DNA from: a candidate division WOR-3 bacterium
Lineage (GTDB): Bacteria; Hydrothermota; 32-111
Assembly: GCA_039804105.1 (NCBI GenBank)
Contig: JBDRZU010000001.1
Location: forward strand, 992,001-1,056,000
Reading direction: 5' to 3'
DNA length: 64,000 nucleotides
The translations under genes and the position numbers were made by a program. Under the pieces are notes generated by a model. The model was given only the letters and a program-made list of their open reading frames with translations. It was not told the DNA's origin and did no database searches. Positions 26,155 through 46,253 of this stretch are shown in pieces (the first letter of the stretch is position 1; every line of letters begins with the position of its first letter).

Positions 26155-29006
26155 ACCAAAAATGGTGCGATTAAGACCCAGATTAAGAGGCTGTTCCATA
26201 AGATTTCGCCACAGGGCATCTGGTTTCCATACCAAAAATGGTGCGATTAAGACAGATACCATCAAACATCAAATGGAAAGGGAACATTAGCAGTAGTTTC
26301 CATACCAAAAATGGTGCGATTAAGACTAGTGGAAAATAAAGAAGTAGATGTTCAGAAATGACTTATTATGTTTCCATACCAAAAATGGTGCGATTAAGAC
26401 CTTGACAAGAAAGTGAGTTTTAAAACTTTAAATTTCGAAGTGTTTCCATACCAAAAATGGTGCGATTAAGACGTATAGAGTAATTGGCTTAGATAGGAAA
26501 GTATCTTTTATAGTTTCCATACCAAAAATGGTGCGATTAAGACTTAAAATTGAAACTAAAAATTTTACATATTATTACGAAATGTTTCCATACCAAAAAT
26601 GGTGCGATTAAGACGAAAAAATGAAAAAAGAGGTTTTAAAAGAAAAACTTTTTAATGGTTTCCATACCAAAAATGGTGCGATTAAGACTCCAAAAAATGT
26701 ATCAGCATACATATTGCTGTCAGAAATGTTTCCATACCAAAAATGGTGCGATTAAGACGTTACCAGAGAACAAATCATTAACTTTCTTATGCCAGCTCGT
26801 TTCCATACCAAAAATGGTGCGATTAAGACCGAAGTGGGGATTGTATTTTTGACTGCTATTTCTTAACAAGGTTTCCATACCAAAAATGGTGCGATTAAGA
26901 CTGGAAGACATTGACAAATGGACTGTTGCACACGAATTGGCAAGGTTTCCATACCAAAAATGGTGCGATTAAGACAGAAGAAGACATAGAACAAATAGAA
27001 ATGATTGAACAACGTTTCCATACCAAAAATGGTGCGATTAAGACATTATTTTCTTCAAATTCTGATGGTTTTAAATTGAAAAGAGTTTCCATACCAAAAA
27101 TGGTGCGATTAAGACGGAGGTAAAAATGATACTTGACATTTCAAGAAATTGTGATGAGTTTCCATACCAAAAATGGTGCGATTAAGACCATCTTGGTATA
27201 TCTGATGGTAGTGTTGAAGTATGTGGCGAACCGTTTCCATACCAAAAATGGTGCGATTAAGACGGAGAAAGAGCCGAATATTGCATGGCAAAATCTCTTA
27301 ACCAAATAGGTTTCCATACCAAAAATGGTGCGATTAAGACGTGAGGAGGAAAAAATGAGACCAATGCCAAGAAAACTATATTATAGGTTTCCATACCAAA
27401 AATGGTGCGATTAAGACCTTGGAACATATGGTAAAAAGTTGGCAATAACTAGTATAAGTTTCCATACCAAAAATGGTGCGATTAAGACTGGATACGCATA
27501 TCCTCTAGTTGCAGATAATGACATACCAGTTTCCATACCAAAAATGGTGCGATTAAGACGGTATTATCTGCCCCCGTCATTTCTGTCTAATGGTAAAGTT
27601 TCCATACCAAAAATGGTGCGATTAAGACGTACAGTACATGTTGGTCTACATGTGATATACATGTGTAGGTTTCCATACCAAAAATGGTGCGATTAAGACC
27701 AAGAAGCACAGATATTAGTAAACGAGAACGTGCCAGATAAGTTTCCATACCAAAAATGGTGCGATTAAGACCAGTGGAGGAAAAAAGGATGAATAAAATA
27801 GAAAACATTATAAGGTTTCCATACCAAAAATGGTGCGATTAAGACACATAGAAAGGTATATGTTGTATATGTGACAAGATTTTCTGTGTTTCCATACCAA
27901 AAATGGTGCGATTAAGACATAATGTCAATTATGATTTTCCAGAAGCGCCATATGTTGGAAATGTTTCCATACCAAAAATGGTGCGATTAAGACCAAATAA
28001 AAGAAATAGGTTGGATTTTATTCCAGATAAAGTAGTTTCCATACCAAAAATGGTGCGATTAAGACCTATAGAAGCAAAAAATGAAAAGAAAGCAGAAATG
28101 ATAGCAAGTTTCCATACCAAAAATGGTGCGATTAAGACCTGATATAATATACCACATTGAATGGTATTTTTTCTCTTAGTAGTTTCCATACCAAAAATGG
28201 TGCGATTAAGACTCATCAATATATGATTCTGGCATCGAATACTGGGTTCCTGGTTTCCATACCAAAAATGGTGCGATTAAGACTATGGTTTATAAAAATA
28301 AAAAAATGGTTAATAAAGGAGGAAAAGTTTCCATACCAAAAATGGTGCGATTAAGACAATAAAAGAAATAGGTTGGATTTTATTCCAGATAAAGTATAAG
28401 TTTCCATACCAAAAATGGTGCGATTAAGACAGGAAAAGATGAATAAAATAGAAAACATTATAAGAGTTATTAATGGTTTCCATACCAAAAATGGTGCGAT
28501 TAAGACTGTAAAGAAAATAAAATTGGTATAGATATTTTACAAAAAAGTTTCCATACCAAAAATGGTGCGATTAAGACATTGTTTGAAAGAGTATCTCCTA
28601 TTAAACTTACATCATCATGTTTCCATACCAAAAATGGTGCGATTAAGACCAAAAAATTATAAAACCAGAAAAATTACCTGTTATAGCAGTTTCCATACCA
28701 AAAATGGTGCGATTAAGACTTGAAGCAGAACTAGATATATCATTGACAATATCATCAAGTTTCCATACCAAAAATGGTGCGATTAAGACTTTCATTAGAA
28801 TAGAACGTATCCAACATACTATCATTCCGTTTCCATACCAAAAATGGTGCGATTAAGACGACATCCCAGAATACATAAGACCAGCAGTGGATGCTGCTAT
28901 AGGTTTCCATACCAAAAATGGTGCGATTAAGACAAAAACAATGAAAAATTGGCATCATATGCTGCAACTATTATTGTTTCCATACCAAAAATGGTGCGAT
29001 TAAGAC
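26155..29006 (-). CRISPR. CRISPR array 1: 39 perfect repeats + 1 degenerate trailer repeat, 39 spacers of 38-46 nt
   Basis: 31-bp repeat, minus strand GTCTTAATCGCACCATTTTTGGTATGGAAAC (ACCA/TGGT stem, then 8-nt tag ATGGAAAC). Degenerate repeat at left and leader at right indicate minus-strand transcription. Confidence 0.98.
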
Positions 29007-29428: not shown

Positions 29429-30418
29429 TTAATATTCCATTTTAAAAGGTGTATATTTTTCAAGTCCAATGATATGTTTTAAAATTTTATAACACTCAGT
29501 CCTGATAAGCATTCTGTATGATATATATTTTTCCATTTTTTTGTAATAAATTGTCTGCCCCAACCTTTTATCATATTCCTTCAAAACAATTCTTTTTCCT
29601 TTGTCGTTAAGAAAACAGATTTCTTGTTCACTTTCAAAATGAGAGTCATCAACCATATTTTTGTTTAAAATGTAAAAAATTATCCTATCAACAACTATCG
29701 GTTTAAAAATATCTGCTATATCAAGTGATAAAGAGTATCTCCGTTCTCCTGGCTCATGCAAAAAACTGATTGTTGGATCAAGTTGAGTTATATAAATTTC
29801 AGAAAGCACAGTCGAATATAAAACAGAATTTAAAAATGAAATCAAAGTGTTAACAATATTATTTGGAGGATTTTTTATTCTTTTTTCAAATTCAAACTCT
29901 TCATTTAGCCATTTTTTCCATGAATCATAATAAATCTTTCTTATGTTTGCTTCTGTTCCCATAATCTCGTTTATACTCTCTTTTGTATCAAGTTTTTCAA
30001 TAAAAAGTTTTATATTTTCGATTTCATTTTTTAAATCAATTTCTCTTCTGTTATAATATTGCATAATACTCAATATGTTTTCAGAACTTCCTTTAACAAT
30101 ATTTTTTGCAAGATATGATCTTTGTTCTATGTTTTTATAATGTTCAATTTGACATAAAAGAGTTTTACCTGAAACAGTTCTATCCATCGGGAAAAAACTT
30201 CCTGTATAATACCCATAATAACTGAAAAAATGTATAGGTATCTGATGACCTGCTAAAAGATTAACAAAATGAGTGTTCAAATCTATACTTCCAAAAAGAT
30301 ATAAGTTTTCAATATTTTCTATTGGAATTGCCTCCTCTTTTCCATCACTTTCAAAATATACAGTATTATCCTTTCTCTTTAATCTTCCATTTGAAATGAT
30401 AAAATAATTTTTGTCCAT
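29429..30418 (-). CDS. cas1: Cas1, type I-B-like
   Basis: GRLKRKDNTVYF, FFSYYGYYTGSF, NTLISFLNS, ISFLHE, LSLDIADIFKP. Start moved to ATG 30418. Confidence 0.95.
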   Translation of the reverse strand: MDKNYFIISNGRLKRKDNTVYFESDGKEEAIPIENIENLYLFGSIDLNTHFVNLLAGHQIPIHFFSYYGYYTGSFFPMDRTVSGKTLLCQIEHYKNIEQRSYLAKNIVKGSSENILSIMQYYNRREIDLKNEIENIKLFIEKLDTKESINEIMGTEANIRKIYYDSWKKWLNEEFEFEKRIKNPPNNIVNTLISFLNSVLYSTVLSEIYITQLDPTISFLHEPGERRYSLSLDIADIFKPIVVDRIIFYILNKNMVDDSHFESEQEICFLNDKGKRIVLKEYDKRLGQTIYYKKMEKYISYRMLIRTECYKILKHIIGLEKYTPFKMEY

Positions 30419-30423
30419 AAAAA

Positions 30424-30915
30424 TCAACTCCTGCATATCATAAGGTAAGAACATTTTTTACATTTATACATCTCTGAAAGTTCGGGTGGATTTTCATCCT
30501 CTTCTACCTTCTTCATTTCATCGGTCAAATTTTTTATTTTTTCTTCATCTCCTTCTTCAAGTTTGACTTCTATAACCTTTTTCTCTTCAGGGAAATTTAA
30601 AACACCTTCGATTTCTTTATTATAGATTTTTTTATAAATCAAAAGATAGAATTTTAATTGAATTTTATGATTTTCTATAAAAGCAGAGGACTTTTTTATC
30701 TCATGAATTTTTCCATCAGGTCCAACAAAATCAATAATATTCTTTCCAAGCAGTATATTTCTTTCCTCTCTTGGATAACTCGTTTTGTCAATCAGTTGAC
30801 CTATTATCAAGTCCTCATTTTTTCCGTCTGGAGAAATCCCTTTTGTAATAAGATAAAACTTCCTCTTACAAAAAAGATAATCTCCAACCAAACTCCCTGT
30901 ATAAAAAAAGTCCAT
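30424..30915 (-). CDS. cas4: Cas4
   Basis: YLFCKRK, IDFV...EIKKS, QLKFYL, CKKCSYLMIC. Confidence 0.93.
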   Translation of the reverse strand: MDFFYTGSLVGDYLFCKRKFYLITKGISPDGKNEDLIIGQLIDKTSYPREERNILLGKNIIDFVGPDGKIHEIKKSSAFIENHKIQLKFYLLIYKKIYNKEIEGVLNFPEEKKVIEVKLEEGDEEKIKNLTDEMKKVEEDENPPELSEMYKCKKCSYLMICRS

Positions 30916-30933
30916 CAGAAATTCAATAACTGA

Positions 30934-32700
30934 TTAATATTTCTGGTTGTTATTTATAAATTTATATTTTTTAATTTTTTGATCTTTTTTAATTTCAGGT
31001 AAAACTTGATTAATAACAGGTTTTGTGCCAGTACTTTTGATAGATCTGTTTGCTACAAACCATTCAAAAGTTTTATCACTATTTTCATTTAAAGGATAAG
31101 AAATATTTGTTGGTGCTTCTTTATAATTTGTGATTATCAATAATTCATTTAAAATTTCTTCATTTGTTTCAGGAATAAAATTATTATCTAATTGATAATC
31201 CTCAAATTTGTATATGACTTTCTCATTTGAATTTTCCAACTTTCTTATCTTAACTTTTATTACATTTATCTTAACACTTCCCAATCCAAGTGGTTTTCCT
31301 AAACCAATCTTATGTGCATTATCTTTTCTTGCTCCAAAATTTAAAGACCAAATTAAATTTTTTAACTCATTTTCCGTGAGATTATTAAAATAAACTTTAA
31401 AATCAAATTTACATTCTGGATTAACAAGAGGTCTAATACAGACATTTCTTTTTGTTCCCTTTTCAATTTTAATCAAATTCAAATCTTTAAAATTATTATG
31501 ATGCCAATAAAATTTTCTTCCTTTTATTTCAGGTTTATAATCTATCTGTATTTGGTATTGATTATTTTCAAAACTTAATGCATAGTCATAATTCCATAAT
31601 CCAAGTTTTATATTTAAAGGTTTTTTTAAATAAAACTCTGTTGCTGTTAATTTGGGAGAAGCTTGTTCCTTTACAACTATTGGTTCTTTTGAATACAATT
31701 CTTCTAATTTGATATTATCATTTGAAAGTTGTGCATCAGTAAACCTTACTTTTGAAGAAATTGAATCCTCCTTATTTGCAAATCCAAAGACTTGACATGC
31801 AGGACAAAGTTCTTCTTTTTTATCGCAAGGAGAATGTTTCCCTATTAAACTTTTTAAATTATTGTAAAAAACTTCTCTTCCAATGCATGCTGGAGATAAA
31901 TAAATTAAACGTTTATTTCCTAAATTTAATATACTGTAATATACTAAAGCACCTTCATTTCTTATTCTGTTAATAGTCATTTCTCCAACTTTTTTATATT
32001 GGTTATGTTTTGAATCTCTTTGAGGGTTATCTTCCTTATAAACTTTATAATTTTTTATTAAATTTTCTACAGTTTTCTCATCTATTTTTATAGGATCTTT
32101 TCCATTGGGAACAAAAATTGATTCATATTTTTTGTTTATAAAACTTTCCCCATGATGAAAATAACCAATACCTTGGCCAAGATTCAAACTATTTAAAGAT
32201 ATCCGTTCTCCTTCTTTAAAATTTTGAATATTTACATTATTTTTTTTAATTTTTTTTCTATCACATGGTTTTATAATCCATTGATTTTGCTCAAAAGAAA
32301 CTATTCCAGGCATTGCTGGTTTTGGTGTCCTTTTATAAAGTATTTTTTCTTCATCTATACTTGAAAGACATGAATTCGTTATTGTTTCATAAATATTTCT
32401 TATTACTCCTCTTATTTCACTTCCTGGAATAACCGGTTTAGGCGGTTTAGGATCTTTTTGGTTTTTCAAATTATTATATGAATAAAAATCATAACTTTTA
32501 ATTTCATCATCTACTGTACTAAATGTTTTATCATTACTTGTATTAGGTATAAAAATAGGTGTTAAAGGTTTAAGTTCACATTCAATGAATCCAGTAAATT
32601 TGCCTTTTACTCTTTTTCCCCTTTTTGGTGGATTACTCTCAATAGATACAAAATTATATGGATTTACAAAAGTTTGATTACTCTCTAGATATTTCCCCAT
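30934..32700 (-). CDS. Type III-D Cas7-group RAMP with large insertion
   Basis: NPYNFV, IPGSEIRG, CPACQVFG, GRKFYWHH, IGLGKPLGLG. Confidence 0.88.
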   Translation of the reverse strand: MGKYLESNQTFVNPYNFVSIESNPPKRGKRVKGKFTGFIECELKPLTPIFIPNTSNDKTFSTVDDEIKSYDFYSYNNLKNQKDPKPPKPVIPGSEIRGVIRNIYETITNSCLSSIDEEKILYKRTPKPAMPGIVSFEQNQWIIKPCDRKKIKKNNVNIQNFKEGERISLNSLNLGQGIGYFHHGESFINKKYESIFVPNGKDPIKIDEKTVENLIKNYKVYKEDNPQRDSKHNQYKKVGEMTINRIRNEGALVYYSILNLGNKRLIYLSPACIGREVFYNNLKSLIGKHSPCDKKEELCPACQVFGFANKEDSISSKVRFTDAQLSNDNIKLEELYSKEPIVVKEQASPKLTATEFYLKKPLNIKLGLWNYDYALSFENNQYQIQIDYKPEIKGRKFYWHHNNFKDLNLIKIEKGTKRNVCIRPLVNPECKFDFKVYFNNLTENELKNLIWSLNFGARKDNAHKIGLGKPLGLGSVKINVIKVKIRKLENSNEKVIYKFEDYQLDNNFIPETNEEILNELLIITNYKEAPTNISYPLNENSDKTFEWFVANRSIKSTGTKPVINQVLPEIKKDQKIKKYKFINNNQKY

Positions 32701-32708
32701 TTTTCCTC

Positions 32709-33143
32709 CTATTTAAATTTTAATATTCGTGCATCAAAAAACTCTATTAAACCATCTTCGGTATATTTATAATAATTTCTAATTTTGTATTTTTCCTTTT
32801 TTTCTAAATTGTAATAATTTAAAGAAATGCCTCTTTCTTTTTCTTCATTCCAGAGGTAATATTCTTCATCAATAAAACCATCAAAACTAAAATTTTCAGG
32901 AAAGGTTATTTTATCGATCTCAATTATTCTATAATTTATAAGGTCATTGGAAGTCCATAAATATATTTCTCTATCAGTGTTGAAAAATCTTGCCTCAATC
33001 AAATTATTATCATCGATTTTTAAATCATTAAATAAATTTTGATCGCTTAATCCTAAAACAACCTTTTCATATGAATATAAAATAAAAAACATTTCTTTTA
33101 AATTCAATTCTTTAAAAATTTCGTTTAATTTTTTATTTTCCAT
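32709..33143 (-). CDS. csx19: Csx19-like III-D subunit
   Basis: EARFFN..EIYLW, DEEYYLW, IRNYY...DAR; size and position between RAMP genes. Confidence 0.75.
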   Translation of the reverse strand: MENKKLNEIFKELNLKEMFFILYSYEKVVLGLSDQNLFNDLKIDDNNLIEARFFNTDREIYLWTSNDLINYRIIEIDKITFPENFSFDGFIDEEYYLWNEEKERGISLNYYNLEKKEKYKIRNYYKYTEDGLIEFFDARILKFK

Positions 33144-33155
33144 AAAAAACTCCTT

Positions 33156-34451
33156 TTATCTAATTTTCATTAAATTTTCATAACCATTTTTTTCAAAATC
33201 TTTTATATATTTTTCTTTATCATTAACTAAAACTTTCGAAATTTTAAGTAAACCTCTACCCACATTAGTTTCACCACCTATTGCATAGATTCCATTATCT
33301 ATTTCTCTCAAAACTAACATCAGAAGTTCAATATATGAATTCATTAAAGATTCATCTTTTTCTTTTAAAAAAATTTTCAACTTTGTTTTACCATTAAAAC
33401 ATGGTTCATTACAAAACAAAGCACTTTCAATATTTCCTCCTGTAAATCTATCAATCCTGATCCTTGTGTTTGGGATCAATTTGCCGTTTTCTATAACACT
33501 TTCTTCGAAAACAATTTTTGATGGTTTGCTTGTTTTATCGCTTTCTTTAACATAGCCAAATAAATCGTTAATAACTTTTTCAGCATCTTTATTTAGTTCT
33601 TTCAAAACCTGATAACATGAACTTCTAAAAAAACCAGCCCAACTTGTTCCTGGGATAATTGGCCTTCCGTTACTTTGGATTTGTGTTGCATCAACATCTT
33701 CTTCAATTTTATACTCTCTGATCAAAATAGAGTAAGGAATATCAAAAAAAACTTCGATTTTACAAATGTCGCTTTTATCAAGATTAAAAATTTTATGATT
33801 CAAATCTTCGTATCGGATATTTTCCTTTATAGAATTCCATTGAAAATTAATCCACTCTTTGATATTTTTAGAAACATCAACCTTTTGAATTTTTTCATCT
33901 TGTAAAATTACTTTTCCTAATCCTCTATTTGTTTTCGCGCCAAAAGAAATTTCACCATTTTTTAAAGAAGAAATGATTATATAAATAATTTCTTCTATTT
34001 CTTTTTCCTTATATAAAATGTTTTCTCTTAGAACAACTTCTAACCTTAATAAAAATTTATTTGAAACATCAACAATTTCATAATCAAATTTACTTTTATC
34101 AATAGATGTTTTTGTTTCGTAATCAATTGATACTCCTTCCCTAACTTTATTTTTTTCTTTCTCACAGACATTTCCATCATAAAACTTGAAAATACTTTGA
34201 TTACCAACATCACCATTTTCATCGATTAAATTTCCAAAACAATAATCGATTAAATCATCTTTAATACAATTTTTCAAGAAAGATCTTATTTTGCCTGCAA
34301 TGGTTGTTGCTGGTACAAATATTTTGCCTTCTCCATCTCTAACAAAGTCAATATCAGTTAATTCGTCTTCCCCATTTCCAATTAATATAGGAGAAATTGC
34401 TTCCAAAATTCCCTTAATATAATAAATTTTACATATTTTGTTTTCTTTCAT
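33156..34451 (-). CDS. csm3: Cas7-Cas7 (tandem Csm3-like) fusion
   Basis: Two RAMP units: SPILIG..D..VPATTIAG..FGAKTNRGLG and IPGTSWAG..RIRIDRFTG..IGGETNVGRG. Confidence 0.85.
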   Translation of the reverse strand: MKENKICKIYYIKGILEAISPILIGNGEDELTDIDFVRDGEGKIFVPATTIAGKIRSFLKNCIKDDLIDYCFGNLIDENGDVGNQSIFKFYDGNVCEKEKNKVREGVSIDYETKTSIDKSKFDYEIVDVSNKFLLRLEVVLRENILYKEKEIEEIIYIIISSLKNGEISFGAKTNRGLGKVILQDEKIQKVDVSKNIKEWINFQWNSIKENIRYEDLNHKIFNLDKSDICKIEVFFDIPYSILIREYKIEEDVDATQIQSNGRPIIPGTSWAGFFRSSCYQVLKELNKDAEKVINDLFGYVKESDKTSKPSKIVFEESVIENGKLIPNTRIRIDRFTGGNIESALFCNEPCFNGKTKLKIFLKEKDESLMNSYIELLMLVLREIDNGIYAIGGETNVGRGLLKISKVLVNDKEKYIKDFEKNGYENLMKIR

Positions 34452-34460
34452 TTTTGCTCC

Positions 34461-36560
34461 TTATTTTTTACTTTTGTAAATTAAAAGAGTAAACAAATTA
34501 CTAACATAAAATTTATAAAATTCTAACTTTTTCTCTTCAGTTAATTCACCCAATTCTTTAATTAAATTTTGAAATTCTTTGTTTTCAATAAAATTATTAA
34601 TATCTATTGTTATATTAGAACCTTGATTACTCATCCATAAATACGCTTTTAACTTTTCCAATTCTTTTACTCTACTTTTCCCCATTTTTTCCAACTTTGA
34701 TTTTAATTCAGATAAACTTTCCGATGTTTGGAAAATATTGTTTAATCTATATAAAAAACTTTTATTTATCTTAATTGGAGCATTATTTATTTTTTTCATA
34801 GCAGTTGAAATCAATATTTCTTTTAATTTTTCTTCAAATAAATATTTTTTTATTGCTTTAAATTCTGGGCATTCAACAGAAAATTCAGTATTGATATTTT
34901 TTTCAATATATTGTTTGTTTAACTTTTTATTTCCATGATAGTTTAAAATTATTTGTCCAAAACCTTCATTTGTCCTTTCTCCAAAACCTTTTAGTATATC
35001 TAATTTATTAATTTGAAAAGTTTTATTGTTTTTAATAATTATTTCACTACCTGCAGATATACATTCAATTTGTTGTTTCGGTAAACCCCACACACTTAAA
35101 AATCCTCCAACAAATTTTGTTTTAATAAAAGATTTTACAATAACTAAATCATTAAAATCAACTTTAAATCTTTCACTTAATTCTTTTTTTAAAATGTTTA
35201 AATCATTTGTAATATACCCAGTAGTAGGGTTTCTTAAAATTATATCACTTTTAAAAGTGAGCACTAAATTTGAATTTTTTTCTATTTGCTTAAGATTTTC
35301 AATTAGTTTGTTAAGTTTTATTTCTAAAATGTTTAAACTTCCATATTGAGAATTTTTGGACCTTCCTAAGTAAATAACTCCATTTTCATTAAGCAAATCA
35401 AGTAAAATTTTTAAATATTTATATTTACCAATTATTGTTCCAACAAACTCATTATCTTCTTTTAAACATTCATATTGAAAAAACTCTCCTTCTTCTTTTG
35501 ATGATTTTCCTAAAGATCTATCAACTGGTCTTTTGTGATGATAATTTATTTCTTTTTCTAAATTTTTTATATATAAATTTTCATTTTCAATAGATACCAA
35601 ATCTGAAACAGTTCCTTTCAAAATTTTATTATCATTCTCATTAAAGGTTAAATCAACAATATCATCAGAATCTTTTATCTTTTGTATCGATAATGGACAA
35701 GGGATGTATTCTCTATTATTTTCCTGAATGTAAAAGTTATTAAAAATAACTTCTTTTTTTAAAAATAGATTCGTAAAAAAATTGTCTTTTCCTTTTTTCT
35801 GTAAATATTTATTAGCCAAAAATCCTAAAATAAAACTACCTGGAATAAAATTTTCACTTTTTTCTTTTTTAATGAAGTTTGTATTGACTATTAAACCCTC
35901 TTTTGCTATCCCTCTTATACTAATCTCATAAAGATCTTCATCATTATATTTTGGATAATTTATTTGTAATTTAACTTCATTTTTAGATTCAATTTCTTTT
36001 ATCTCTTCAAGAAAAATTTCTCCAAAACCTCTATTTCTTTTAAGTCCCATAGATCTTGTAATTTTTAATAAATCATTTATAAAACTTTTATATTTCTCAT
36101 CAAAATCAATTTTAAAAACAAATTCTAAATTTTTCTTCAAAACTCTTGATGTTCTCAAAGAATTTTTTAAAGCTACTCCATTTTCATCTATTGAAGTTTG
36201 ATTTCTTAAATAAGTATAGTAAGAGATTATTCTTTCTTTATTAAAAAGAGTTTTATCTTTTTGACTTTTTATATTGTTTTTAATATTTTCATAGTTATTT
36301 ATATAAGCGTTTGATATTCTTAGATTACCAAAAACCTTATCACCACTTTTGCCAAACAAATAATCTATATCTTTTTTTTCAATTTTATAACCATTATCCA
36401 AAAGTTCCATAGCATTTTCTTTTAATAAACCTTTTATTCTCTTCGCTGGGATATAAGGAATTCCAAATTCATCATAAAAAACATCTGTATCTATTATTCC
36501 TGAAAGTCCTTGACCTGAATAAGGTATCGTATCTGATAATAATTTAATTTTTATAAACAT
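34461..36560 (-). CDS. csx10: Csx10 (Cas7-Cas5 fusion) with helical, possibly Cas11-like, C-terminus
   Basis: GIPYIPAKRIKG..GLKRNRGFG, then IPGSFILG..LGRSKNSQYG..GFGERTNEGFG. Confidence 0.8.
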   Translation of the reverse strand: MFIKIKLLSDTIPYSGQGLSGIIDTDVFYDEFGIPYIPAKRIKGLLKENAMELLDNGYKIEKKDIDYLFGKSGDKVFGNLRISNAYINNYENIKNNIKSQKDKTLFNKERIISYYTYLRNQTSIDENGVALKNSLRTSRVLKKNLEFVFKIDFDEKYKSFINDLLKITRSMGLKRNRGFGEIFLEEIKEIESKNEVKLQINYPKYNDEDLYEISIRGIAKEGLIVNTNFIKKEKSENFIPGSFILGFLANKYLQKKGKDNFFTNLFLKKEVIFNNFYIQENNREYIPCPLSIQKIKDSDDIVDLTFNENDNKILKGTVSDLVSIENENLYIKNLEKEINYHHKRPVDRSLGKSSKEEGEFFQYECLKEDNEFVGTIIGKYKYLKILLDLLNENGVIYLGRSKNSQYGSLNILEIKLNKLIENLKQIEKNSNLVLTFKSDIILRNPTTGYITNDLNILKKELSERFKVDFNDLVIVKSFIKTKFVGGFLSVWGLPKQQIECISAGSEIIIKNNKTFQINKLDILKGFGERTNEGFGQIILNYHGNKKLNKQYIEKNINTEFSVECPEFKAIKKYLFEEKLKEILISTAMKKINNAPIKINKSFLYRLNNIFQTSESLSELKSKLEKMGKSRVKELEKLKAYLWMSNQGSNITIDINNFIENKEFQNLIKELGELTEEKKLEFYKFYVSNLFTLLIYKSKK

Positions 36561-36575
36561 AATTTATCTCCTTAT

Positions 36576-38087
36576 TTAAATATTTTCCAAAAATTCCATA
36601 ATTTCGATTGCATCATAGTATGGCGTTATTTTTTCTTCAGTAAAAATTTTATTTGAATTATCATAAGTTGGTAAACAAAAATTTCTACTATTTAAAAAGT
36701 TTATGTAAAATTCAACATCTTCTTTTGATTTTATAAGATAGGAACGCAACTTTTTTATTTTATTTTTTGGTTTATTATTAAAATCGTTAACTAATTTTTT
36801 TAAATTATTAAAATTAAATTTTTCCAATATTTTTTCACCACCTATATAATATGGCCTCCAAAGCAAATTATACGAATCATAGCCTTCTTTAGGTTCTGGT
36901 TTTTGCATATTTGGAACAGAATAAATTTTATTTCTTAATGTTTTAAGATCCGTTGTTATTCCTGAAAAAACAATATGAAAATCTATCCAACTACCTATAT
37001 AATTTAATTTATAATAACTTGAAATTCTTTTTCCTTTTTCCTTTGCACTTTTACATAATTCTTCTGCCAATTCATATCCTCTATAAAATGGAAAATGGGC
37101 TTTTACCAAAGCAACACCAGCAGATGCGGTTAAAGTTAATTCTTTACCATCAATTTTTATCCTTTCTTGTTCAATATTTTTAAGAATATCTTCCGCAATA
37201 CTTAAGCCATATTTACCTTCACAAATTAGGGTAATATCATCCCCTCCAAAAATTATAGGTCTAATTTTTATTTTATTATTGGCTATAAAATGCTTTTTAT
37301 TTTTCATTTTTTTTAAAGTTTCTGAAAACGCTTTTTCATAAATTTTATTTATATCAAATGATATTTTTTTAATTAATCGAATAGAATCTTTAAAATCTTT
37401 TGAATTTTGTAATATTCCTTTAATAAAATTACCCATACTATTTCCATCAATATGAATATAGGCAAGGTGTCCATCTTCTTTACCTCTGAATTTTTCTATA
37501 TTTTTTTCAAAAGTCAAACCATCAAGAACTTCTTTAAATTTTTCTTCAAAAATATTAATTTCTTCTTCTCTCCTCATTAAATATGCTGGTTTTGAAATAT
37601 AACCATCTTCATCTTTATAATAAGCGGGTAGATTATCCAAAAAACTTTCTCTCGTTATTGATATTCCAAGAAGTGATGTCTTTTTAGGTAACTTATTTTT
37701 TCTTATATTCGCTTGTTTTATTAACTCATCAAAATCTTTTTGATAATCCTGTAAATTAGTTTCTTTATATGAAACTGCGAAAGAAACAAGACCATAAGTA
37801 TAATCATAAAAATTTTTAGACAGTTTTTTAGTAAAATTTATTGCGCTTTCCTTATCATTGAACATTAAAAGTAAATTTCCTCCTCCAGAAAATATTATTT
37901 TGCCTTCTTTTGAATCTGATTCAAATCCTTTGTCAAGATCAATTTCTGTCACCCCCAGACTTTTTAAATTTTCATTAGAAAATAATTTTGAAACGATGGA
38001 AGATGCTCCAATATTTTCACGCATTTTTTTTGAAAGAAAAATAAAATTCTGAATCCCTGTCATATCATAATAGGCCAATGTCTTCAT
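36576..38087 (-). CDS. cas10: Cas10 (III-D-like), no HD domain, intact GGDD
   Basis: Begins at DMTGIQNFIF; SGGGN, HIDGNSMG, IIFGGDD, SAGVA, AEELCKSAK. Confidence 0.92.
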   Translation of the reverse strand: MKTLAYYDMTGIQNFIFLSKKMRENIGASSIVSKLFSNENLKSLGVTEIDLDKGFESDSKEGKIIFSGGGNLLLMFNDKESAINFTKKLSKNFYDYTYGLVSFAVSYKETNLQDYQKDFDELIKQANIRKNKLPKKTSLLGISITRESFLDNLPAYYKDEDGYISKPAYLMRREEEINIFEEKFKEVLDGLTFEKNIEKFRGKEDGHLAYIHIDGNSMGNFIKGILQNSKDFKDSIRLIKKISFDINKIYEKAFSETLKKMKNKKHFIANNKIKIRPIIFGGDDITLICEGKYGLSIAEDILKNIEQERIKIDGKELTLTASAGVALVKAHFPFYRGYELAEELCKSAKEKGKRISSYYKLNYIGSWIDFHIVFSGITTDLKTLRNKIYSVPNMQKPEPKEGYDSYNLLWRPYYIGGEKILEKFNFNNLKKLVNDFNNKPKNKIKKLRSYLIKSKEDVEFYINFLNSRNFCLPTYDNSNKIFTEEKITPYYDAIEIMEFLENI

Positions 38088-38096
38088 CTCTCCTCC

Positions 38097-40472
38097 TTAT
38101 TCATAAATCTTTTTTCCAATCAATTCTATTAACAGATCATTCATTCCTGTTTTAGTATATATATTCAATCTCTGTTTACCACTTTTGGTGACTATCCAGT
38201 AAGAAACACCCTTTTCACCTATCATCTTTTCAAATTCAAGATGGTTTTCATCAACTTTACATTTTCTCATCTCATCGAGGATAAATTCCGTAATCAGGTT
38301 TCTTCCAATTCTGTATATTCTTTTAATAATTTCTCTGATATCTTTATCTGTTATATCATTGATTCCACTGAAACCATCGCCCCATAAAGTTGAATGGCTT
38401 TTTTTCTCTCCAATTCTTATCGGAACTTCTTCCTGATCAATTATATAACTCTTATAATAATCAAAAATCATCTTACCAACAGGAGAATCTGTAAAACTTT
38501 TTATGTTTTTATCGTTGTTAAGTAATATTCTAAAATTTTGTGGCAAATTATTTTTAAATAAATTTTTTGCTCTTTCATAGTCAGTTTCATTTTTTATTTC
38601 CTGTATCAATTCATAATACTTCTCATAAAGTTTGAAATCAAACTCAATTGGAATTTCGGGAAGTTTTACAATAGAATTAAAATCCTCAAAAACATAGTAA
38701 ACTGGAACCTTGTATAGTACTGCAAGTATTGTTGCATAAGCGATCTCTGCTTTGAATCCACCGGTTGCAAGTATTTCAATGTTTCTTCCAGTATTATCGA
38801 TTATGTTCGTAACTTTTTTGATAAAATTTATCAGCCCTCTTGTTTCAAATTCATTTGCATCATATTTTAATCCCTCAATTTTTACCCTTTCAACATTTGC
38901 TTTATATTTTTCAAGAATATACTTTTCAAGTAATTTACACGACTTCTCTCCCTCTTCAGTATCACTTTCTATTAAGTAAAACCAGGAGTTTTTATTTACT
39001 TCTTTTTTTAACTTATGGATTGTATTTGTTTCTGCTGAGACCTTTTCTGGAGGATTTGAAAGCATAAAATCCAAAATATGTTCGAAAGTTTCCTCTTTAC
39101 CAGGACACATCTTTCTAAAATTTCCAAACACCGCAGTTCCAACTGTTACAATATAACTTTTCATATCTTTTCTCCTTAAAAGTTTTCCTTTTTTAAAAAT
39201 CAGTTCTTTCCCATTCTCCCCAATTATCGTTCTAACTTCCTTTTTCAATTTTTGTTTCACATTTTTAATCGCATCCAAATCTCCATGAACAAGCAAAACA
39301 TTTTTCGGAGTAGTTCTGTTGACATAAGATATTATACCTTTCAAACTTGAATGGAGTGACAAAGGAAAGTGTTCAACATTGACTTTTTTCACATACTCCT
39401 TCTCATCTATATATATAACTCCATTTTTTTCAGTTTTTAAAAGTTCATATCCTAAAGTTCCTTTTGCAAGATAACCTGTGAAAAGAACAGAGGATGTCTC
39501 ATCCTCAATAAGATGTTTTAAAATTTGATATGAAGGAGTATGAGGATTCAGCATTCCACTTGAAGCAATTATTATCGATTTTCGAGGTATAGAATCAATT
39601 TTTTCAATATATTTAGATTTTAACGATTTAGAATGACATTCTCTATAAATCGGGGTTATTTTATTTGCCATTCCAACCGTATATATCTTTTTAGTTAACA
39701 ATTCTTTACTTCTTCTTTCAAAAAGAAATAGTATTTCCTGTGTTTTTCCAAGTGCAAAAGCAGGTATCAAAACAATTCCGTTTTTTTCTAATGTTTTATT
39801 TATCGATTCTATAAATCTACTTTCATATTTTTCTCTCATCTTTTCTTCATATTCTGAGTTTCCATTTGTTGTTTCTGTTATCATAATATCAACATTTTTT
39901 TTATAATAGTTTAATTTTCCTGTCATAATATTGTTCGAAACAGAAAAATCACCTGTATAAATCAAAGAGTTCCCTTTGTTATCAAAAATATGTATTCCAC
40001 AACTCCCAATAACATGTCCTGATTTAAAAAGTTTAAAATTTATATTAGAATTCAATTGATTAACCTTGTTCAGTTCAATACATTCTATCTTTCTGTCAAG
40101 TTCAAAAAGATTTAATTTATTAAAATAAATTTCATAGAACCTTTTATTATAGTCATTCATCATTAAAACCTTTGCACTATCAAGAAGCATGATTTTATAG
40201 ATTTCTTTCGAATTCTGACTCATCACAATTCTTTTCACATCAAAAATTTTTTCTATAACAGGCAATGAACCAAGATGATCAAGATGGGGATGAGATACAA
40301 ATAAGAGATCAATTTTTTCATCTTCAATTTTATGAAGTAAAGGTAATTTGTTATATCCAGATTTATTTGGATCCATACCACAATCAAGCATAATTTTTAT
40401 TCCTTCCCAATCAACATAATAAGAGTTTGCCCCAATCTCCTGTGCCCCGCCAAGCGGCATAATTTTTATCAA
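38097..40472 (-). CDS. MBL/beta-CASP nuclease fused to APE2256-type CARF + C-terminal domain
   Basis: LDCG, SHPHLDHLG, GHVIG, YTGDF, PAFALGKTQE, SLHS, VHGD. From Met437: VTVGTA, SAETNT, SDTEEG, ATGGFKAE. Confidence 0.85.
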   Translation of the reverse strand: MIKIMPLGGAQEIGANSYYVDWEGIKIMLDCGMDPNKSGYNKLPLLHKIEDEKIDLLFVSHPHLDHLGSLPVIEKIFDVKRIVMSQNSKEIYKIMLLDSAKVLMMNDYNKRFYEIYFNKLNLFELDRKIECIELNKVNQLNSNINFKLFKSGHVIGSCGIHIFDNKGNSLIYTGDFSVSNNIMTGKLNYYKKNVDIMITETTNGNSEYEEKMREKYESRFIESINKTLEKNGIVLIPAFALGKTQEILFLFERRSKELLTKKIYTVGMANKITPIYRECHSKSLKSKYIEKIDSIPRKSIIIASSGMLNPHTPSYQILKHLIEDETSSVLFTGYLAKGTLGYELLKTEKNGVIYIDEKEYVKKVNVEHFPLSLHSSLKGIISYVNRTTPKNVLLVHGDLDAIKNVKQKLKKEVRTIIGENGKELIFKKGKLLRRKDMKSYIVTVGTAVFGNFRKMCPGKEETFEHILDFMLSNPPEKVSAETNTIHKLKKEVNKNSWFYLIESDTEEGEKSCKLLEKYILEKYKANVERVKIEGLKYDANEFETRGLINFIKKVTNIIDNTGRNIEILATGGFKAEIAYATILAVLYKVPVYYVFEDFNSIVKLPEIPIEFDFKLYEKYYELIQEIKNETDYERAKNLFKNNLPQNFRILLNNDKNIKSFTDSPVGKMIFDYYKSYIIDQEEVPIRIGEKKSHSTLWGDGFSGINDITDKDIREIIKRIYRIGRNLITEFILDEMRKCKVDENHLEFEKMIGEKGVSYWIVTKSGKQRLNIYTKTGMNDLLIELIGKKIYE

Positions 40473-41869
40473 CGTAACCCCTCTATTGTTATTTTTAATA
40501 ATTCAAAAGATTTTTCTAATTCTTCAAAAGACATGTTTAGGTTATATTTTTTTAAGTAATTGAGTATCAAAAATTTTGCTAATTTTTTTATATCTTCTTG
40601 CTCTTCTTTATTAATAATTTTATCTCCATGAGCCATATTTGAACAGTTTCGTATCTTTGAACAATTAAAAATCCATTTAACATCTATATTTCTTTCTTTA
40701 CTCAAAATATCGTTATTCAAAAGTTTTAATATAAAAACATCATCCATTAGTGCTGTTTTAGGTGGTAAACCAGTTCCTTTATATTCTTCACCAAAAACTT
40801 TTCCAGCAATTTCTTTAAACTTTCCAAAATCTATTTTTATCTTTGAATAATCAGGCTTAGAAGTATCAAATTCATAATCTTTTTTTAAAACTGATTGAAA
40901 AATCATTTCTACTGTTCGATATAACAAAAATGATGAAATTTCATACCGTTCTTTTTTTTCATAAAAAATTCCTAAAAAATAATGATTGAAAATTTTATAT
41001 TCCTCAGTTTCTTTAATGTTTTCCAGTAAATTTACATTAATTTCTAATTTACTTCTTAGATTATTATCTAATTCTTGAAATTTGTTTAATATTTGTTCAT
41101 ATAATTTTTTTGATTCTTCAAAATTAAAATCAATCCAGTTTTTTTGTGCTTGAGATAATAATTTTATTAATTCAATATTATATTGTTTTCTAAAAGTAGT
41201 CTTTTCTTCATATTCTTTTATCAATTTACATGCTTCATTGTAATTGCCTGAATTAAAATAATTTAAAACATCCAACAAAACCTTATCCCCTGAGAGATAA
41301 AAAGGATTATAAATAATTTTTAAAAATTCTGAAGAAAAAAAAGGTTTATTACTTTCTCTTACATATCTTCTATAATCTATATAACATGCGTCTATATTAA
41401 AAATAGCACTGATCATTCCAGATATAGCGCTCATTGTTTTTTTCCCACCTGTTAAATCAATTAAAATTATTTTTTCTTTATTTGAAAGGTATATGTCTAC
41501 AATTTTGTTATAAAAATTAGTTATATCTCTTTCATCTACTTCATGAAATGATATTTTTTCCTTTTCATATTCAATTTTTTCAAGAATAATATCTCTATAT
41601 TTTGAACTTTCCTTAGTAACAATTAAATAAATTGCTTCCTTCGGTTTTACTAATGAACCAGAAAGAATTGAAGTTGCAGGAGAAAGTCCAACTAAAGAAA
41701 TCAAAATATCATATTCTTTTTTTACCTCTTTTTTATTTTCGTCAATAAATTTTTTTAGATATAAAGGTAAAAACTCATTAAAATAAAATCTATCTTTTTC
41801 TTTAAAATCTTTTATTTCATTATATTTTTTGTTCATTTCGTCCATTAATTTTTCAAAATTTTTATCCAC
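40469..41869 (-). CDS. CARF-HEPN ribonuclease (Csm6/Csx1-like, TIGR02710-type)
   Basis: SLVGLSP, IDLTGGKKTMS, HEPN RNCSNMAHG. Start GTG 41869, or the in-frame duplicate GTG 41938. Confidence 0.85.
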   Translation of the reverse strand: MDKNFEKLMDEMNKKYNEIKDFKEKDRFYFNEFLPLYLKKFIDENKKEVKKEYDILISLVGLSPATSILSGSLVKPKEAIYLIVTKESSKYRDIILEKIEYEKEKISFHEVDERDITNFYNKIVDIYLSNKEKIILIDLTGGKKTMSAISGMISAIFNIDACYIDYRRYVRESNKPFFSSEFLKIIYNPFYLSGDKVLLDVLNYFNSGNYNEACKLIKEYEEKTTFRKQYNIELIKLLSQAQKNWIDFNFEESKKLYEQILNKFQELDNNLRSKLEINVNLLENIKETEEYKIFNHYFLGIFYEKKERYEISSFLLYRTVEMIFQSVLKKDYEFDTSKPDYSKIKIDFGKFKEIAGKVFGEEYKGTGLPPKTALMDDVFILKLLNNDILSKERNIDVKWIFNCSKIRNCSNMAHGDKIINKEEQEDIKKLAKFLILNYLKKYNLNMSFEELEKSFELLKITIEGLR

Positions 41870-41969
41870 CTTCACTCCTTTTTTTCTATCATACCAAAAC
41901 GTAAGCAAGCGCGTAATAAGCGATTTCCCAATCAACACCTTCACTCCTTTTTTTCTATCATACCAAAAC
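41867..41969. repeat. 34-bp exact direct repeat around a 35-nt insert
   Basis: CACCTTCACTCCTTTTTTTCTATCATACCAAAAC at 41867-41900 and 41936-41969. Confidence 0.95.
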
Positions 41970-42692: not shown

Positions 42693-44435
42693 TTATATTA
42701 AGTTTATTAAATCGCTCAATTCCCTTATTTTTTCTATATTTTTTGCATTCAAAAATTTTATGTATCTACAGAAAGTTTGTTTAAAAAGTTTCAGTCCTTT
42801 TAAATTTTTTATTATATCTTCCATAACATCTTCATCTTTGTATTTGATATAATATGTTAACAATCCTCTTATTCCAAAAAGCAAATAATCTTCTTTTTCG
42901 AATTCTTTCATTTTTTTAAAAAAGTAATAATAAAGTTTTTTCGACATCTCTTGATCAGTTTCAAGAAATGAAAATGCATAATACTCAATTGCAAGATAAT
43001 ACATGTAATAGAATCTTGTGTCCTTAACTAATTCAAAGAAATCTTCCCACAAAAACTTCACTTCTTCTGATTTTCCAAGATGTGCATTCAATCTTATCTT
43101 CTCAAAATGGATAAAAACTTTCTGAATATTTTCAGGAGTTGCTTTTTTAAGATAATTTTCAGCAAGACCAATATATTTTTTAGAATTATTATAATTCCCT
43201 TTTAAAGTATTCAATTTTGCAAGATAACAGCAAACTCTTGATACATCAGAAGTAAGATACTTTTTACAAAACTCAAGATTATTTAAAAGATATTTTTCTG
43301 CTTTTTTAAAATCCTTATTGTGTATTAAGTATTGAGATAAAGTTCCATAGGTTGATATAGAAAGGTGTTTTCCTGTATATTTTTTTTCTTCCAAGTTCAA
43401 TTTCAAAAGTTTTAAGCCCTCTTTAAATCTGTAAATGTCTTTTAAAAATACTGCATAAACATTGTTAAATTCGATAGAAATATTATTATACTCAAATAAT
43501 TTTTCTTTTATAAGTTCATTTTTTGTATCATTTGCTCTTTTAAAATAATTTTCAGCAGTTAAAATATCTCCCGATTGATTATAATGTAATGCCAATCTTG
43601 ATAGAACAAGAAAGTAATAATTCTTTGACTTTATATCCTCTCTATTTTTAAGATATGCCTCAAGATTATTGTAAATTGGAAGATAGGAATTTTTATCACT
43701 CTTCAACAGATAATTTTCAGCAATATTGAACATTCTTTCAACACCAGAGAGAAATCTTTTATCGACTGTTTCAGTGTAATCTCCAAAGACATTTTTTATT
43801 ACTTCTTTAAAATTTTTCAATTTTTTATCAGGATAAACAAAGATTCCCTCTTTTATTTCCTTATCAAAACAATATTTTTTTTCTTCTATAAAATCAACTT
43901 CAAGCAGATTACCTTCAAAATCGAGTGCTCCAGTAAAACAAAATTTATCTTCCACATATCTATTCGTTACTGCCAAATATAAAAGCACTGCTATTGGAAG
44001 TTCGAGCGATTCACAATCAAGAGAAAAAATCTTTTCTATCTCATCAAAATTTTCAAGTATTATTTTGTTAGGATTCAAATCAATGATTATCTCTTTTTGG
44101 GCAAAATATTTTTCAACAACCACAACTGCTTTTCTTATAACATTTGCTATGTTTTCCTTATAAATGATTGTTTCATTTTCAGAAAAATTGACTTTTAACG
44201 GAATAAGAACCGGATACTTTTGATTTTTATCTATTATTACCACAGGAGCAAAAACATTATATTCCAAATGTGGATTTAAAATATCTACACTTTTACTCAA
44301 ATTTTTCAAAATTGTCTTCATATCATATGTTTTCACTTCATTTAAAAGTTTATCTATTATTAATTTTGAATGACTATAATTTTGAAATTTCAAAAGTAAA
44401 TTCAAATATTCAAATGACCTTAAATCTGATCTCAA
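42693..44435 (-). CDS. Lon-type (S16) protease domain + C-terminal TPR repeats
   Basis: DCES143LELPIAV...FTGALDFEGNLLEVDFIEEK186 (Ser-Lys 43 apart). TPR-like LALHYNQSGDILTAENYFKRA, GTLSQYLIHNKDFKKAEKYL, YLAKLNTLKGNYNNSKKY. Confidence 0.8.
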   Translation of the reverse strand: MRSDLRSFEYLNLLLKFQNYSHSKLIIDKLLNEVKTYDMKTILKNLSKSVDILNPHLEYNVFAPVVIIDKNQKYPVLIPLKVNFSENETIIYKENIANVIRKAVVVVEKYFAQKEIIIDLNPNKIILENFDEIEKIFSLDCESLELPIAVLLYLAVTNRYVEDKFCFTGALDFEGNLLEVDFIEEKKYCFDKEIKEGIFVYPDKKLKNFKEVIKNVFGDYTETVDKRFLSGVERMFNIAENYLLKSDKNSYLPIYNNLEAYLKNREDIKSKNYYFLVLSRLALHYNQSGDILTAENYFKRANDTKNELIKEKLFEYNNISIEFNNVYAVFLKDIYRFKEGLKLLKLNLEEKKYTGKHLSISTYGTLSQYLIHNKDFKKAEKYLLNNLEFCKKYLTSDVSRVCCYLAKLNTLKGNYNNSKKYIGLAENYLKKATPENIQKVFIHFEKIRLNAHLGKSEEVKFLWEDFFELVKDTRFYYMYYLAIEYYAFSFLETDQEMSKKLYYYFFKKMKEFEKEDYLLFGIRGLLTYYIKYKDEDVMEDIIKNLKGLKLFKQTFCRYIKFLNAKNIEKIRELSDLINLI

Positions 44436-45252: not shown

Positions 45253-45313
45253 AAACTCCTCAATCTTTCTTTCAATAAATATAAACTAAAAAATTTTCAA
45301 AAAACAAAAATTT

Positions 45314-46243: not shown

Positions 46244-46253
46244 AAATATAAAA

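Follow-up and report, generated by a model that had tools for sequence, protein, structure and literature searches.

A CPSF73-like beta-CASP nuclease fused to a CARF7 sensor in a type III-D CRISPR locus: a candidate cA4-gated effector

Fusions of a CARF sensor with an effector domain turn target recognition by type III CRISPR systems into a cell-wide response, and the effector domains described so far comprise HEPN, PIN, RelE, PD-(D/E)xK and HD domains, proteases, a deaminase and membrane proteins. Among the sensors, Crn1 and Cami1 are placed together in Crf7 (CARF7), whose members bind cyclic tetra-adenylate (cA4), are in many cases ring nucleases and are often fused to RelE or DUF2103 (Makarova 2025, Supplementary Table 2); beta-CASP is absent from the Crf7 fusion partners in that table. 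A CRISPR-linked beta-CASP nuclease is known from type VII, where Cas14 combines a beta-CASP module with a Cas10-remnant adaptor on a Cas7 backbone and is guided by CRISPR RNA (crRNA); according to PMC12669027, its loci carry Cas7 and Cas5, without Cas10 or cyclic oligoadenylate (cOA) signalling. Here we describe a gene that joins a beta-CASP nuclease to a CARF7 sensor. It lies on the minus strand, at 38097 to 40472, of a stretch of 64,000 nucleotides (nt) from a candidate division WOR-3 bacterium (contig JBDRZU010000001.1, positions 992,001 to 1,056,000), which we call the window. Because the nuclease active site is intact, motif C and the RMMBL domain are of the RNA type, the CARF7 domain has cA4-binding relatives and the context is type III, we infer that the gene probably encodes a type III ancillary effector, a CPSF73-like beta-CASP RNase gated by cA4 via a Crn1/Cami1-type CARF7.

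The open reading frame (ORF) is a single in-frame gene of 791 amino acids (aa). Its TTG start is preceded by GAGGGG and overlaps the stop of the upstream Csx1-type gene (CGT-TGA / TTG-A); an ATG four codons past the TTG is an alternative start, and the gene ends with a TAA at 38097-38099. Pfam placed four domains on the translation, all above the cut-offs: Lactamase_B (aa 14-85), Beta-Casp (244-344), RMMBL (364-412) and Cas_APE2256 (477-606). An AlphaFold2 model of the whole protein, computed from a 64-row alignment, was confident throughout (predicted local distance difference test, pLDDT, 92.9; predicted template modelling score, pTM, 0.88). Four parts were visible in it: the nuclease half, the Rossmann-like CARF7 sensor, a helical linker resembling a winged helix-turn-helix (wHTH) and a C-terminal alpha/beta domain (Table 1). 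An initial annotation of this DNA had read a full metallo-beta-lactamase (MBL)/beta-CASP motif set (aa 1-436) in frame with an APE2256-type CARF and a further C-terminal domain, and both the domains and the motifs were borne out when checked.

The motif residues of the nuclease half were all present (D30, H61xH63xD65H66, H153, D175, E200, H374 and H396), and all 10 metal-binding and beta-CASP motif residues were invariant in 24 of 24 aligned fusions. PF10996 scored 61.5 bits (cut-off 27.7) and PF07521 31.7 bits (cut-off 21.6). Two NCBIfam models, aCPSF1 (216 bits) and Cas14 (195.3 bits), matched the half far below their cut-offs; for the Cas14 equivalog model the cut-off is 800 and the best stretch aligned aa 2-290 only. 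Sequence matches in the Protein Data Bank (PDB) comprised CPSF73 (2i7t, E-value 5.7e-48), IntS11, archaeal CPSF/FttA, Cas14 (E-value 1.4e-30) and TTHA0252. With Foldseek, the model of this half superposed on CPSF73, IntS11 and aCPSF1; the CPSF73 entry 6m8q gave an E-value of 1.6e-35 and a template modelling (TM) score by target of 0.81, within a range of 0.81-0.86 for CPSF73. There was also a weak NCBIfam match to a cyclic-nucleotide-degrading MBL phosphodiesterase (E-value 0.0088). A histidine at beta-CASP motif C, as against a valine, is said to mark the RNA-specific branch of these enzymes (a distinction attributed to Callebaut's work of 2002), and motif C is His396 in all 24 fusions. The RMMBL domain together with this histidine points to RNA as the substrate of the nuclease half.

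The nearest non-fused relatives of the nuclease half were stand-alone proteins of bacteria such as Ignavibacteria and Bacteroidota, 450-467 aa long (180-228 bits, 30-34% identity), which adjoin the fused clade among the sampled rows of the N-half tree described below. No Cas14 was found among the best 120 relatives of the half, and the Cas14 PDB chain reached 109 bits, below the stand-alone enzymes. Since its nearest non-fused relatives are bacterial stand-alone beta-CASPs, the half most likely came from a bacterial housekeeping-type enzyme, separately from the type VII recruitment, as far as score gaps only can tell. By the same measure, CRISPR systems seem to have recruited a beta-CASP nuclease a second time in the fusion family, independently of type VII. 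The link that the initial annotation drew to the type VII effector nuclease thus holds by analogy only, the half being nearer to the stand-alone bacterial proteins. The same genome encodes a stand-alone beta-CASP of its own, 465 aa long, elsewhere (G000:C1:656996-658312). A further group of long beta-CASP proteins (P0009-P0011 and others, 800-840 aa, some from Firmicutes) carries ~380 aa of C-terminal repeats instead of a CARF, and these proteins branch away from the fusion clade.

The ORF is one real gene and not an indel artefact. A word-indexed search returned 7 full-length homologues (785-855 aa, 29-56% identity), all with beta-CASP and APE2256 domains. An exhaustive phmmer search with the C-half alone found 1,670 relatives at E <= 1e-3; among the best 150 of these were 21 full-length beta-CASP fusions with HxHxDH and 2 N-truncated fusion fragments, and the remainder were mostly stand-alone proteins of ~350 aa. 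One frame was kept in fusions of 27-56% identity despite widely differing linker sequences. Contigs of three other public runs span the junction between the halves with 0 gaps and left the insertion/deletion table empty, a comparison of assembled contigs in which rare or minority alleles in a homopolymer run may be hidden. One of them, from another sample of the study that is the possible source (X2 record 11, covering 38687-39337), had a single difference, and two from other studies were each ~94% identical (X6 record 24 over 38085-39668, 102 substitutions; X10 record 7 over 38635-40056, 88 substitutions).

Trees of the two halves gave a concordant picture. In the N-half tree, 36 stand-alone proteins sampled from the search hits were combined with 25 fused ones, that of the window among them, to give 61 rows; all 25 fused rows lay on one side of a branch with a Shimodaira-Hasegawa-like approximate likelihood ratio test (SH-aLRT) value of 92 (1 change). 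In the C-half tree, limited to 29 rows by admitting hits only if they start no later than C-half position 15 and reach at least position 335 (other listed hits were omitted), 15 fused and 2 stand-alone rows lay behind a starred branch (97); here 2 changes are needed, of which the starred branches force at least 1. The 2 stand-alone rows, P0060 and P0063 (348-349 aa), may be secondary splits or basal members. Sub-clades were identical in both trees: (window, P0002), P0003, (P0004, P0059); (P0007, P0070); (P0006, P0064, P0073); and (P0077, P0099, P0101). The halves have therefore travelled together since an old fusion, and each tree fits a single such event.

The initial annotation raised the alternative that a 1-nt indel in the T5/A6 runs near the junction, whether real or a sequencing error, had made one frame of two genes; a misassembly or a recently inserted nucleotide in the run would have the same effect. 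The features on which it drew are present: there are T/A runs at 39189-39199 and an out-of-frame TAA in TTTTAAGG. Were the A6 run, 25-35 nt upstream, one A shorter, the beta-CASP frame would stop at this TAA, and the usual TAAGGAG arrangement of stop and ribosome-binding site would stand before the CARF part, that is, a normal two-gene junction whose stop overlaps a perfect Shine-Dalgarno (SD) site as it does between other genes here. The position of P0060 and P0063 on the fused side of the C-half branch would suit such a history as well. The conserved frame across unrelated linkers, the gap-free contigs and the congruence of the half-trees contradict it, and we give this explanation next to no weight. 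That homologues might always be split and unlinked to CRISPR, which had been named as a way for the fusion to fail, is not what we found: fused homologues exist and several stand beside cas or CARF genes.

The sensor was assigned to CARF7 by several searches. Cas_APE2256 (PF09651) scored 103 bits (cut-off 24.8) and TIGR02619 68.4 bits (cut-off 37.45), and the best PADLOC models for the C-half were CARF7--CARF_RelE (169 bits) and then CARF_RelE. We searched the PDB with a profile built from the stand-alone relatives, which matched 8phb/8phj ('APE2256 family', 406 aa; E-value 5e-33) over profile positions 1-238, in the CARF and what follows it, the alignment to 8phb extending to chain residue 262. 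The long Crn1 Sis0811 (7pq2, E-value 1.7e-25) and 3qyf (E-value 2.3e-22) followed. Aligned with hhalign to Cami1-like proteins, the C-half reached a probability of 100 over its residues 1-287.

Of the sensor motifs, TGGFK is present and its Lys (K574) is conserved in 24 of 24 fusions, while the first motif reads GTA here. Position 447, which corresponds to S11 of Cami1, is Ser in 22 of the 24 fusions; the two with Ala are this protein and its closest relative, P0002. With S11 Cami1 cleaves its activator cA4, and the S11A change reportedly disables this ring nuclease; the equivalent Ser of Crn1 is likewise catalytic. With Ala447 in that place, this copy should sense cA4 without degrading it; the sequence predicts a cA4 sensor unable to switch itself off, and other proteins of the locus would have to provide the switch-off. 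At the equivalent place the PDB chain 8phb reads GTS and 8phj GTA. The PDB title says only 'APE2256 family', and we take both entries to be AvCami1, an identity that fits because of the Ser/Ala difference between the chains and the existence of an AvCami1-S11A construct. This construct was used for in-vivo cA4 assays in a preprint.

We predicted a homodimer of the C-half with its interface in the CARF. The interface score (ipSAE) was 0.60 versus 0.00 for the best control, runs agreed in at least 90% of contacts and the pLDDT of the partner was at least 81; 20 of 30 solved one-chain pairs attained the same mark, as did 1 of 23 single chains. Since CARF dimers have already been solved, the score may reflect likeness to them and is not proof. 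We infer cA4 as the CARF ligand by analogy with the family. The neighbouring CARF-HEPN gene of the Csx1/CARF1 type fits cA4 as the messenger of the locus; such proteins are described as cA4-activated and as frequent companions of Cami1. Other architectures occur in the same CARF7 clade (P0116, P0160, P0187, P0169, P0072/P0080): a 970-aa protein combines STAND NB-ARC, TPR and CARF7, and the same set holds CARF7 with histidine phosphatase, with HD-CE or with DUF4062, and a double CARF7.

For the C-terminal domain, a model of the last 118 aa had a pLDDT of 86.8. Foldseek found no match to it in the PDB at E <= 1e-3, and a wide VIA search gave a best Z of 4.3 to thioesterase and roadblock folds, common alpha/beta folds of which none was outstanding. 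With Pfam at E <= 10, all matches were at chance level. RelE in particular had no Pfam match and was none of the Foldseek and VIA matches listed, searches that a very diverged RelE would escape. The hhalign alignment to Cami1-like proteins passes the first helix of the domain and then ends, leaving the beta-sheet part unaligned. There were some signs of DUF2103. Structure neighbours in the Atlas were DUF2103-type clusters (TM 0.59-0.66, below the tool's bar), and PADLOC model PDLC01930 (CARF7--CARF_DUF2103) aligned aa 439-766 to its positions 4-337 of 353 with 154 bits. Against Pfam DUF2103, 0 of 25 family members matched at E <= 1, and an hhalign comparison with the window's own CARF7-DUF2103-type gene (24921-26090) covered the CARF and linker only. 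The domain is conserved in both stand-alone and fused relatives.

At the boundary of the two halves the gene contains a second potential start. The initial annotation had called it a strong ribosome-binding site with an ATG at 39164, and rightly so: AAGGAG stands 7 nt before this ATG, as strong as at true starts in the window, and the in-frame ATG leaves 355 aa. The window contains 15 copies of the pattern AAGGAG-N5-9-ATG where 2.83 would be expected, a count reached by 0 of 100 shuffles. Twelve of the 15 sites head ORFs of at least 90 codons and 2 head ORFs of 10 and 16 codons; of all 15, just the site discussed here falls within a long ORF, where 446 open codons precede it. RNA folding predicts that its SD is unpaired and that the region has no more structure than shuffled sequence (z -1.04). 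Met437 aligns with the start Met of the stand-alone relatives of ~350 aa, and all three of the closest fusions have retained RR[KR][DS]M. At the junction Met of the distant fusions L001, L005 and L003/L081, read at the DNA level, there was no SD at the proper distance. A Met at most 12 residues upstream of the CARF start was found in 11 of 22 parsable fused proteins, versus ~22% by chance (in a set of 26 in which the window and P0001 are near-duplicates). The 122 nt from 39136 to 39257, which hold the SD, the ATG and the linker, contain none of the listed differences shared by contigs X6 and X10, while the flanks have ~1 per 27 nt; this is a hint of constraint at the nucleotide level.

Such a gene could give rise to two products: besides the 791-aa fusion, a CARF7 protein of 355 aa would be started internally, and this short form, as a homodimer or paired with the long form, would tune the response. 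Besides the resemblance of the site to true gene starts, 12 of its other 14 occurrences heading real ORFs, its unpaired SD, the aligned Met and the conserved motif, it speaks for this that III-A and III-B loci contain genes for the ~350-aa relatives alone and that the C-half by itself is predicted to dimerise. The SD is not conserved at the junctions of the distant fusions, only half of the parsable fusions have a Met near the CARF start, and AGG-AGA is a common spelling of Arg-Arg in an AT-rich genome. We regard a second product, which would be compatible with a cA4-gated RNase, as plausible but less likely than not. The initial annotation had proposed exactly this pair, a cOA-regulated RNase that also yields a 355-aa isoform; of the two, the RNase is the better supported and probable, and the isoform is possible.

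The gene belongs to a minus-strand operon that reads Lon-like/TPR protein, Cas6, Csx1-type CARF-HEPN, fusion gene, Cas10, Csx10-like RAMP, Csx7-like RAMP, Csx19, TIGR03986 RAMP, Cas4, Cas1 and Cas2, followed by two CRISPR arrays. By its gene content this is a type III-D system, and its cyclase is apparently active. The cas10 adjacency given in the initial annotation was confirmed: the neighbour (36576-38087) is a small Cas10 with GGDD (PADLOC Cas10d, 379 bits), and the stop of the fusion gene overlaps its SD site, TAAGGAGGAGAGATG. NCBIfam identified Csx19 (TIGR03984, 44.2 bits, cut-off 35) and the TIGR03986 protein (259.6 bits, cut-off 161), the Csx10 and Csx7 models staying below their cut-offs; cas1, cas2 and cas4 were named by reading the ORF translations only.

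Fused genes elsewhere stand beside cas1 and a TM1812-type CARF gene (L001), beside cas1, three CARF genes and a DinG helicase (L005), beside Cmr6, an APE2256 protein and cas1 (L089, the longer context of L003/L088/L081), and beside a TM1812-type CARF gene (L091). Stand-alone homologues of the C-half were located in III-A loci (L006, L007 and L002) and in a III-B locus (L016), adjoining CARF-HEPN genes. Fused genes are thus found beside different type III subtypes, and the gene moves between subtypes like ancillary effectors do. In the III-A locus L007, a single 295-aa ORF (11196-12083, plus strand) between the stand-alone CARF7 protein and the CARF-HEPN gene matches both MntA antitoxin and HepT toxin models, a fused type VII toxin-antitoxin pair.

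How would a cA4-gated RNase work in this locus? The active site of CPSF73 is a cleft between the MBL and beta-CASP lobes, which has to open for RNA. On binding of target RNA by the III-D complex, the small Cas10 with its GGDD would make a cyclic oligoadenylate, most likely cA4 to judge from the family and from the co-encoded Csx1-type effector. This would bind the pocket of the predicted CARF homodimer, as is assumed from Cami1 and Crn1, and a conformational change would be relayed via the wHTH-like linker and the C-terminal domain to the beta-CASP module. The opened nuclease would then degrade RNA non-specifically and slow the infected cell. Several observations weigh against this probable course of events. 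Because the Ser of the ring nucleases is retained in 22 of 24 fusions, signal turnover could be the main activity of the family. The C-terminal domain, standing in place of the RelE of Cami1, could be the real effector, with the beta-CASP half in another role. Two fused loci, on the short contigs L094 and L090, show no cas gene nearby. Finally, only 1 of 39 related genomes searched (G021, of the same phylum) has a full-length fusion, too narrow a distribution from which to judge the role.

If turnover were the main task, the protein would be an off-switch: CARF7 would capture cA4 and, in most members of the family, cleave it, and the beta-CASP half would degrade cyclic or linear oligoadenylates, silencing the adjacent Csx1-type effector, which would need such silencing. 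Crn1, a ring nuclease, does belong to CARF7/Crf7, as do many proteins regarded as ring nucleases, the Ser and the Lys are kept in 22 and 24 of the 24 fusions, and the fused homologues match the NCBIfam model 'CRISPR system ring nuclease' (NF040951), far below its cut-off; the weak MBL phosphodiesterase match points the same way. Yet the nuclease is of the CPSF73/RMMBL type that acts on long RNA and not of the small MBL phosphodiesterase type, and the copy in the window has lost the Ser while keeping every nuclease motif. A 436-aa nuclease is also large for a task that the 180-aa Crn1 does alone, and the second CARF7 gene of the window (24921-26090), which has the Ser, could serve as the ring nuclease. 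We consider an off-switch unlikely. Less likely still is that the protein is a nuclease of the effector complex, comparable to Cas14 or to RNase J2 (III-A), which would trim crRNA or cut the target in place of the missing Cas10 HD domain with the CARF as a modulator. Its gene is immediately upstream of, and translationally coupled to, a Cas10 without HD domain, the Cas14 model gives 195 bits on the nuclease half, and, as type VII demonstrates, a complex derived from III-D can employ a beta-CASP. A Cas10-remnant adaptor is absent, though, the C-terminus being CARF7 and other domains; the fusions stand beside different subtypes (III-D here, III-B Cmr6 in L089) and other CARF genes, as ancillary effectors do; and bacterial stand-alone enzymes, not Cas14, are the closer relatives of the nuclease half. 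A combination of several of the preceding ideas seems to us similarly improbable as the off-switch: the cA4-opened RNase, as a new class of type III effector, would be accompanied by the internally started, Ser-less 355-aa CARF7 form as a cA4 buffer or as a heterodimer partner that poisons or primes, setting the threshold of a suicide response; the gene would be 1 nt (A6/T5) away from the split state, so that lineages could switch; and the family would be a second, independent III-D-type recruitment of a beta-CASP.

Table 1 Features of the fusion gene and of its locus (positions in the window)
Feature	Position	Strand	Basis
Whole gene, beta-CASP / CARF7 / wHTH-like / C-terminal-domain fusion, stop codon included	38097..40472	-	ORF translation, Pfam, NCBIfam, AlphaFold2
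N-half, aa 1-436, MBL + beta-CASP + RMMBL, CPSF73-like	39165..40472	-	PF00753, PF10996, PF07521
HxHxDH metal-binding motif (H61, H63, D65, H66)	40275..40292	-	invariant in 24/24 fused proteins
T/A homopolymer runs (T5/A6) just upstream of junction	39189..39199	-	direct reading; no indel in any contig over the stretch
Internal SD-like AAGGAG + 7 nt + ATG (codon 437) at domain boundary	39162..39177	-	pattern count, RNA fold
CARF7 (APE2256, Crf7) sensor, ~aa 437-612; GTA (aa 445-447), TGGFK (K574)	38637..39164	-	Pfam, PADLOC
Ala447 at position of catalytic Ser of Cami1 (S11) / Crn1	39132..39134	-	alignment of 24 fusions
wHTH-like helical linker, ~aa 613-680, common to Cami1 and long Crn1	38433..38636	-	model secondary structure, profile alignments
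C-terminal alpha/beta domain, ~aa 681-791 (beta, alpha, four beta strands, alpha), 110 aa	38100..38432	-	AlphaFold2 model
Small Cas10, 503 aa, GGDD, without HD domain, translationally coupled downstream	36576..38087	-	Pfam Cas10-Cmr2_palm2, PADLOC Cas10d 379 bits
Csx1-type CARF-HEPN, 491 aa, upstream neighbour	40469..41944	-	Pfam Csm6 HEPN; TIGR02710 below cut-off; PADLOC CARF1--CARF_HEPN 183 bits
Rest of III-D module: Csx10-like and Csx7-like RAMPs, Csx19, TIGR03986 RAMP, Cas4, Cas1	29429..36560	-	NCBIfam; Cas4 and Cas1 by reading of translations
Two CRISPR arrays (26296-27045 and 28251-28859), repeat GTTTCCATACCAAAAATGGTGCGATTAAGAC	26296..28859	.	Tandem Repeats Finder

Further genes surround this module. 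The two arrays share one repeat and lie ~1.2 kb apart, and pseudo-ORFs between them (27439-27696 and 27929-28219) suggest degenerate or missed repeat units. Past the arrays, the second CARF7 gene (minus strand) encodes 389 aa that match PADLOC CARF7--CARF_DUF2103 over the full length (341 bits), keep the Ser (CTVGAS) and are 37% identical to aa 426-635 of the fusion; the product could be the ring nuclease of the locus or a third cOA effector. Upstream of cas6, three minus-strand genes occupy 42693-46282. The first (580 aa) has a weak Lon-protease-like stretch (PDB 1xhk, E-value 0.0079; Pfam ChlI, E-value 5e-4) and TPR, another (280 aa) belongs to no family, and the last (322 aa) has weak sigma-70/LuxR-type matches at its C-terminus. 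The trio recalls the CalpL/CalpT/CalpS protease/sigma-factor modules; no SAVED or CARF domain was seen in it, and all matches were below the cut-offs.

The protein looks like a cOA-sensing CARF effector with a new nuclease module, and the class is apparently a rare one. Full-text literature searches and those published effector lists that were consulted, a scope outside which the 2020 NAR classification of CARF proteins falls, contained no description of a CARF-beta-CASP fusion. One CRISPR-linked module in the supplements of Altae-Tran 2023 bears the name '(betalactamase).gb', an unannotated gene of 2,046 nt, which may or may not be this family; an MBL fold mentioned in the CoCoNuT paper is unrelated to the fusion. 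If the enzyme is gated by cA4, it would add a metal-dependent and structurally well-understood RNase to the cOA toolbox, useful in sense-and-respond or diagnostic designs. It would also be a natural example of ligand-controlled opening of a CPSF73-like active site, and would mean that beta-CASP nucleases were adopted by CRISPR systems at least twice. The tuning of such effectors could be approached through two simple and testable handles, the natural Ser-to-Ala change of the sensor and the internal start.

Among described proteins, Cami1, a CARF7-RelE mRNA interferase, shares with the fusion the CARF7 sensor and the wHTH-like region that follows it. Cami1 is cA4-activated, dimeric and often co-occurs with Csx1, and a Csx1-type gene is present here too. 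In contrast to Cami1, the fusion has no detected RelE, a 436-aa beta-CASP module is added at the N-terminus and the equivalent of S11 is Ala. Crn1 (Sso2081; long form Sis0811, 7PQ2; Sso1393, 3QYF) belongs to the same CARF7 family, and the long forms likewise have a wHTH after the CARF, according to PMC9638899. Crn1 carries no effector domain, whereas the fusion has a nuclease and an extra C-terminal domain and lacks the Ser.

Cas14 of type VII (8YHD, 8Z4J) is, like the fusion, a CRISPR-linked beta-CASP RNase with the full HxHxDH...D...H...H set. The likeness is expressed in the NCBIfam score of 195 bits, the E-value of 1.4e-30 to the PDB chain and a Foldseek E-value of 2.5e-29 to 9j9e, and both proteins occur in or derive from III-D-like contexts. 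They differ in the partner domain, which is a CARF in the fusion, in the operon, which here holds a Cas10 with GGDD and CARF effectors, and in a score far below the cut-off of 800. The fold and motifs are also those of CPSF73, IntS11, aCPSF1 (FttA) and bacterial stand-alone beta-CASPs such as TTHA0252, but these act in housekeeping RNA processing and have no nucleotide sensor. With Csx1/Csm6 (CARF-HEPN) and Can2/Card1 (CARF-PD-(D/E)xK), finally, the fusion shares the principle of a CARF joined to a non-specific nuclease, activated in those proteins by Cas10-made cOA. Their sensors are CARF1 and CARF4 as opposed to the CARF7 found here, their nuclease folds are unrelated, and the order of domains is reversed, the nuclease of the fusion being N-terminal to its sensor.

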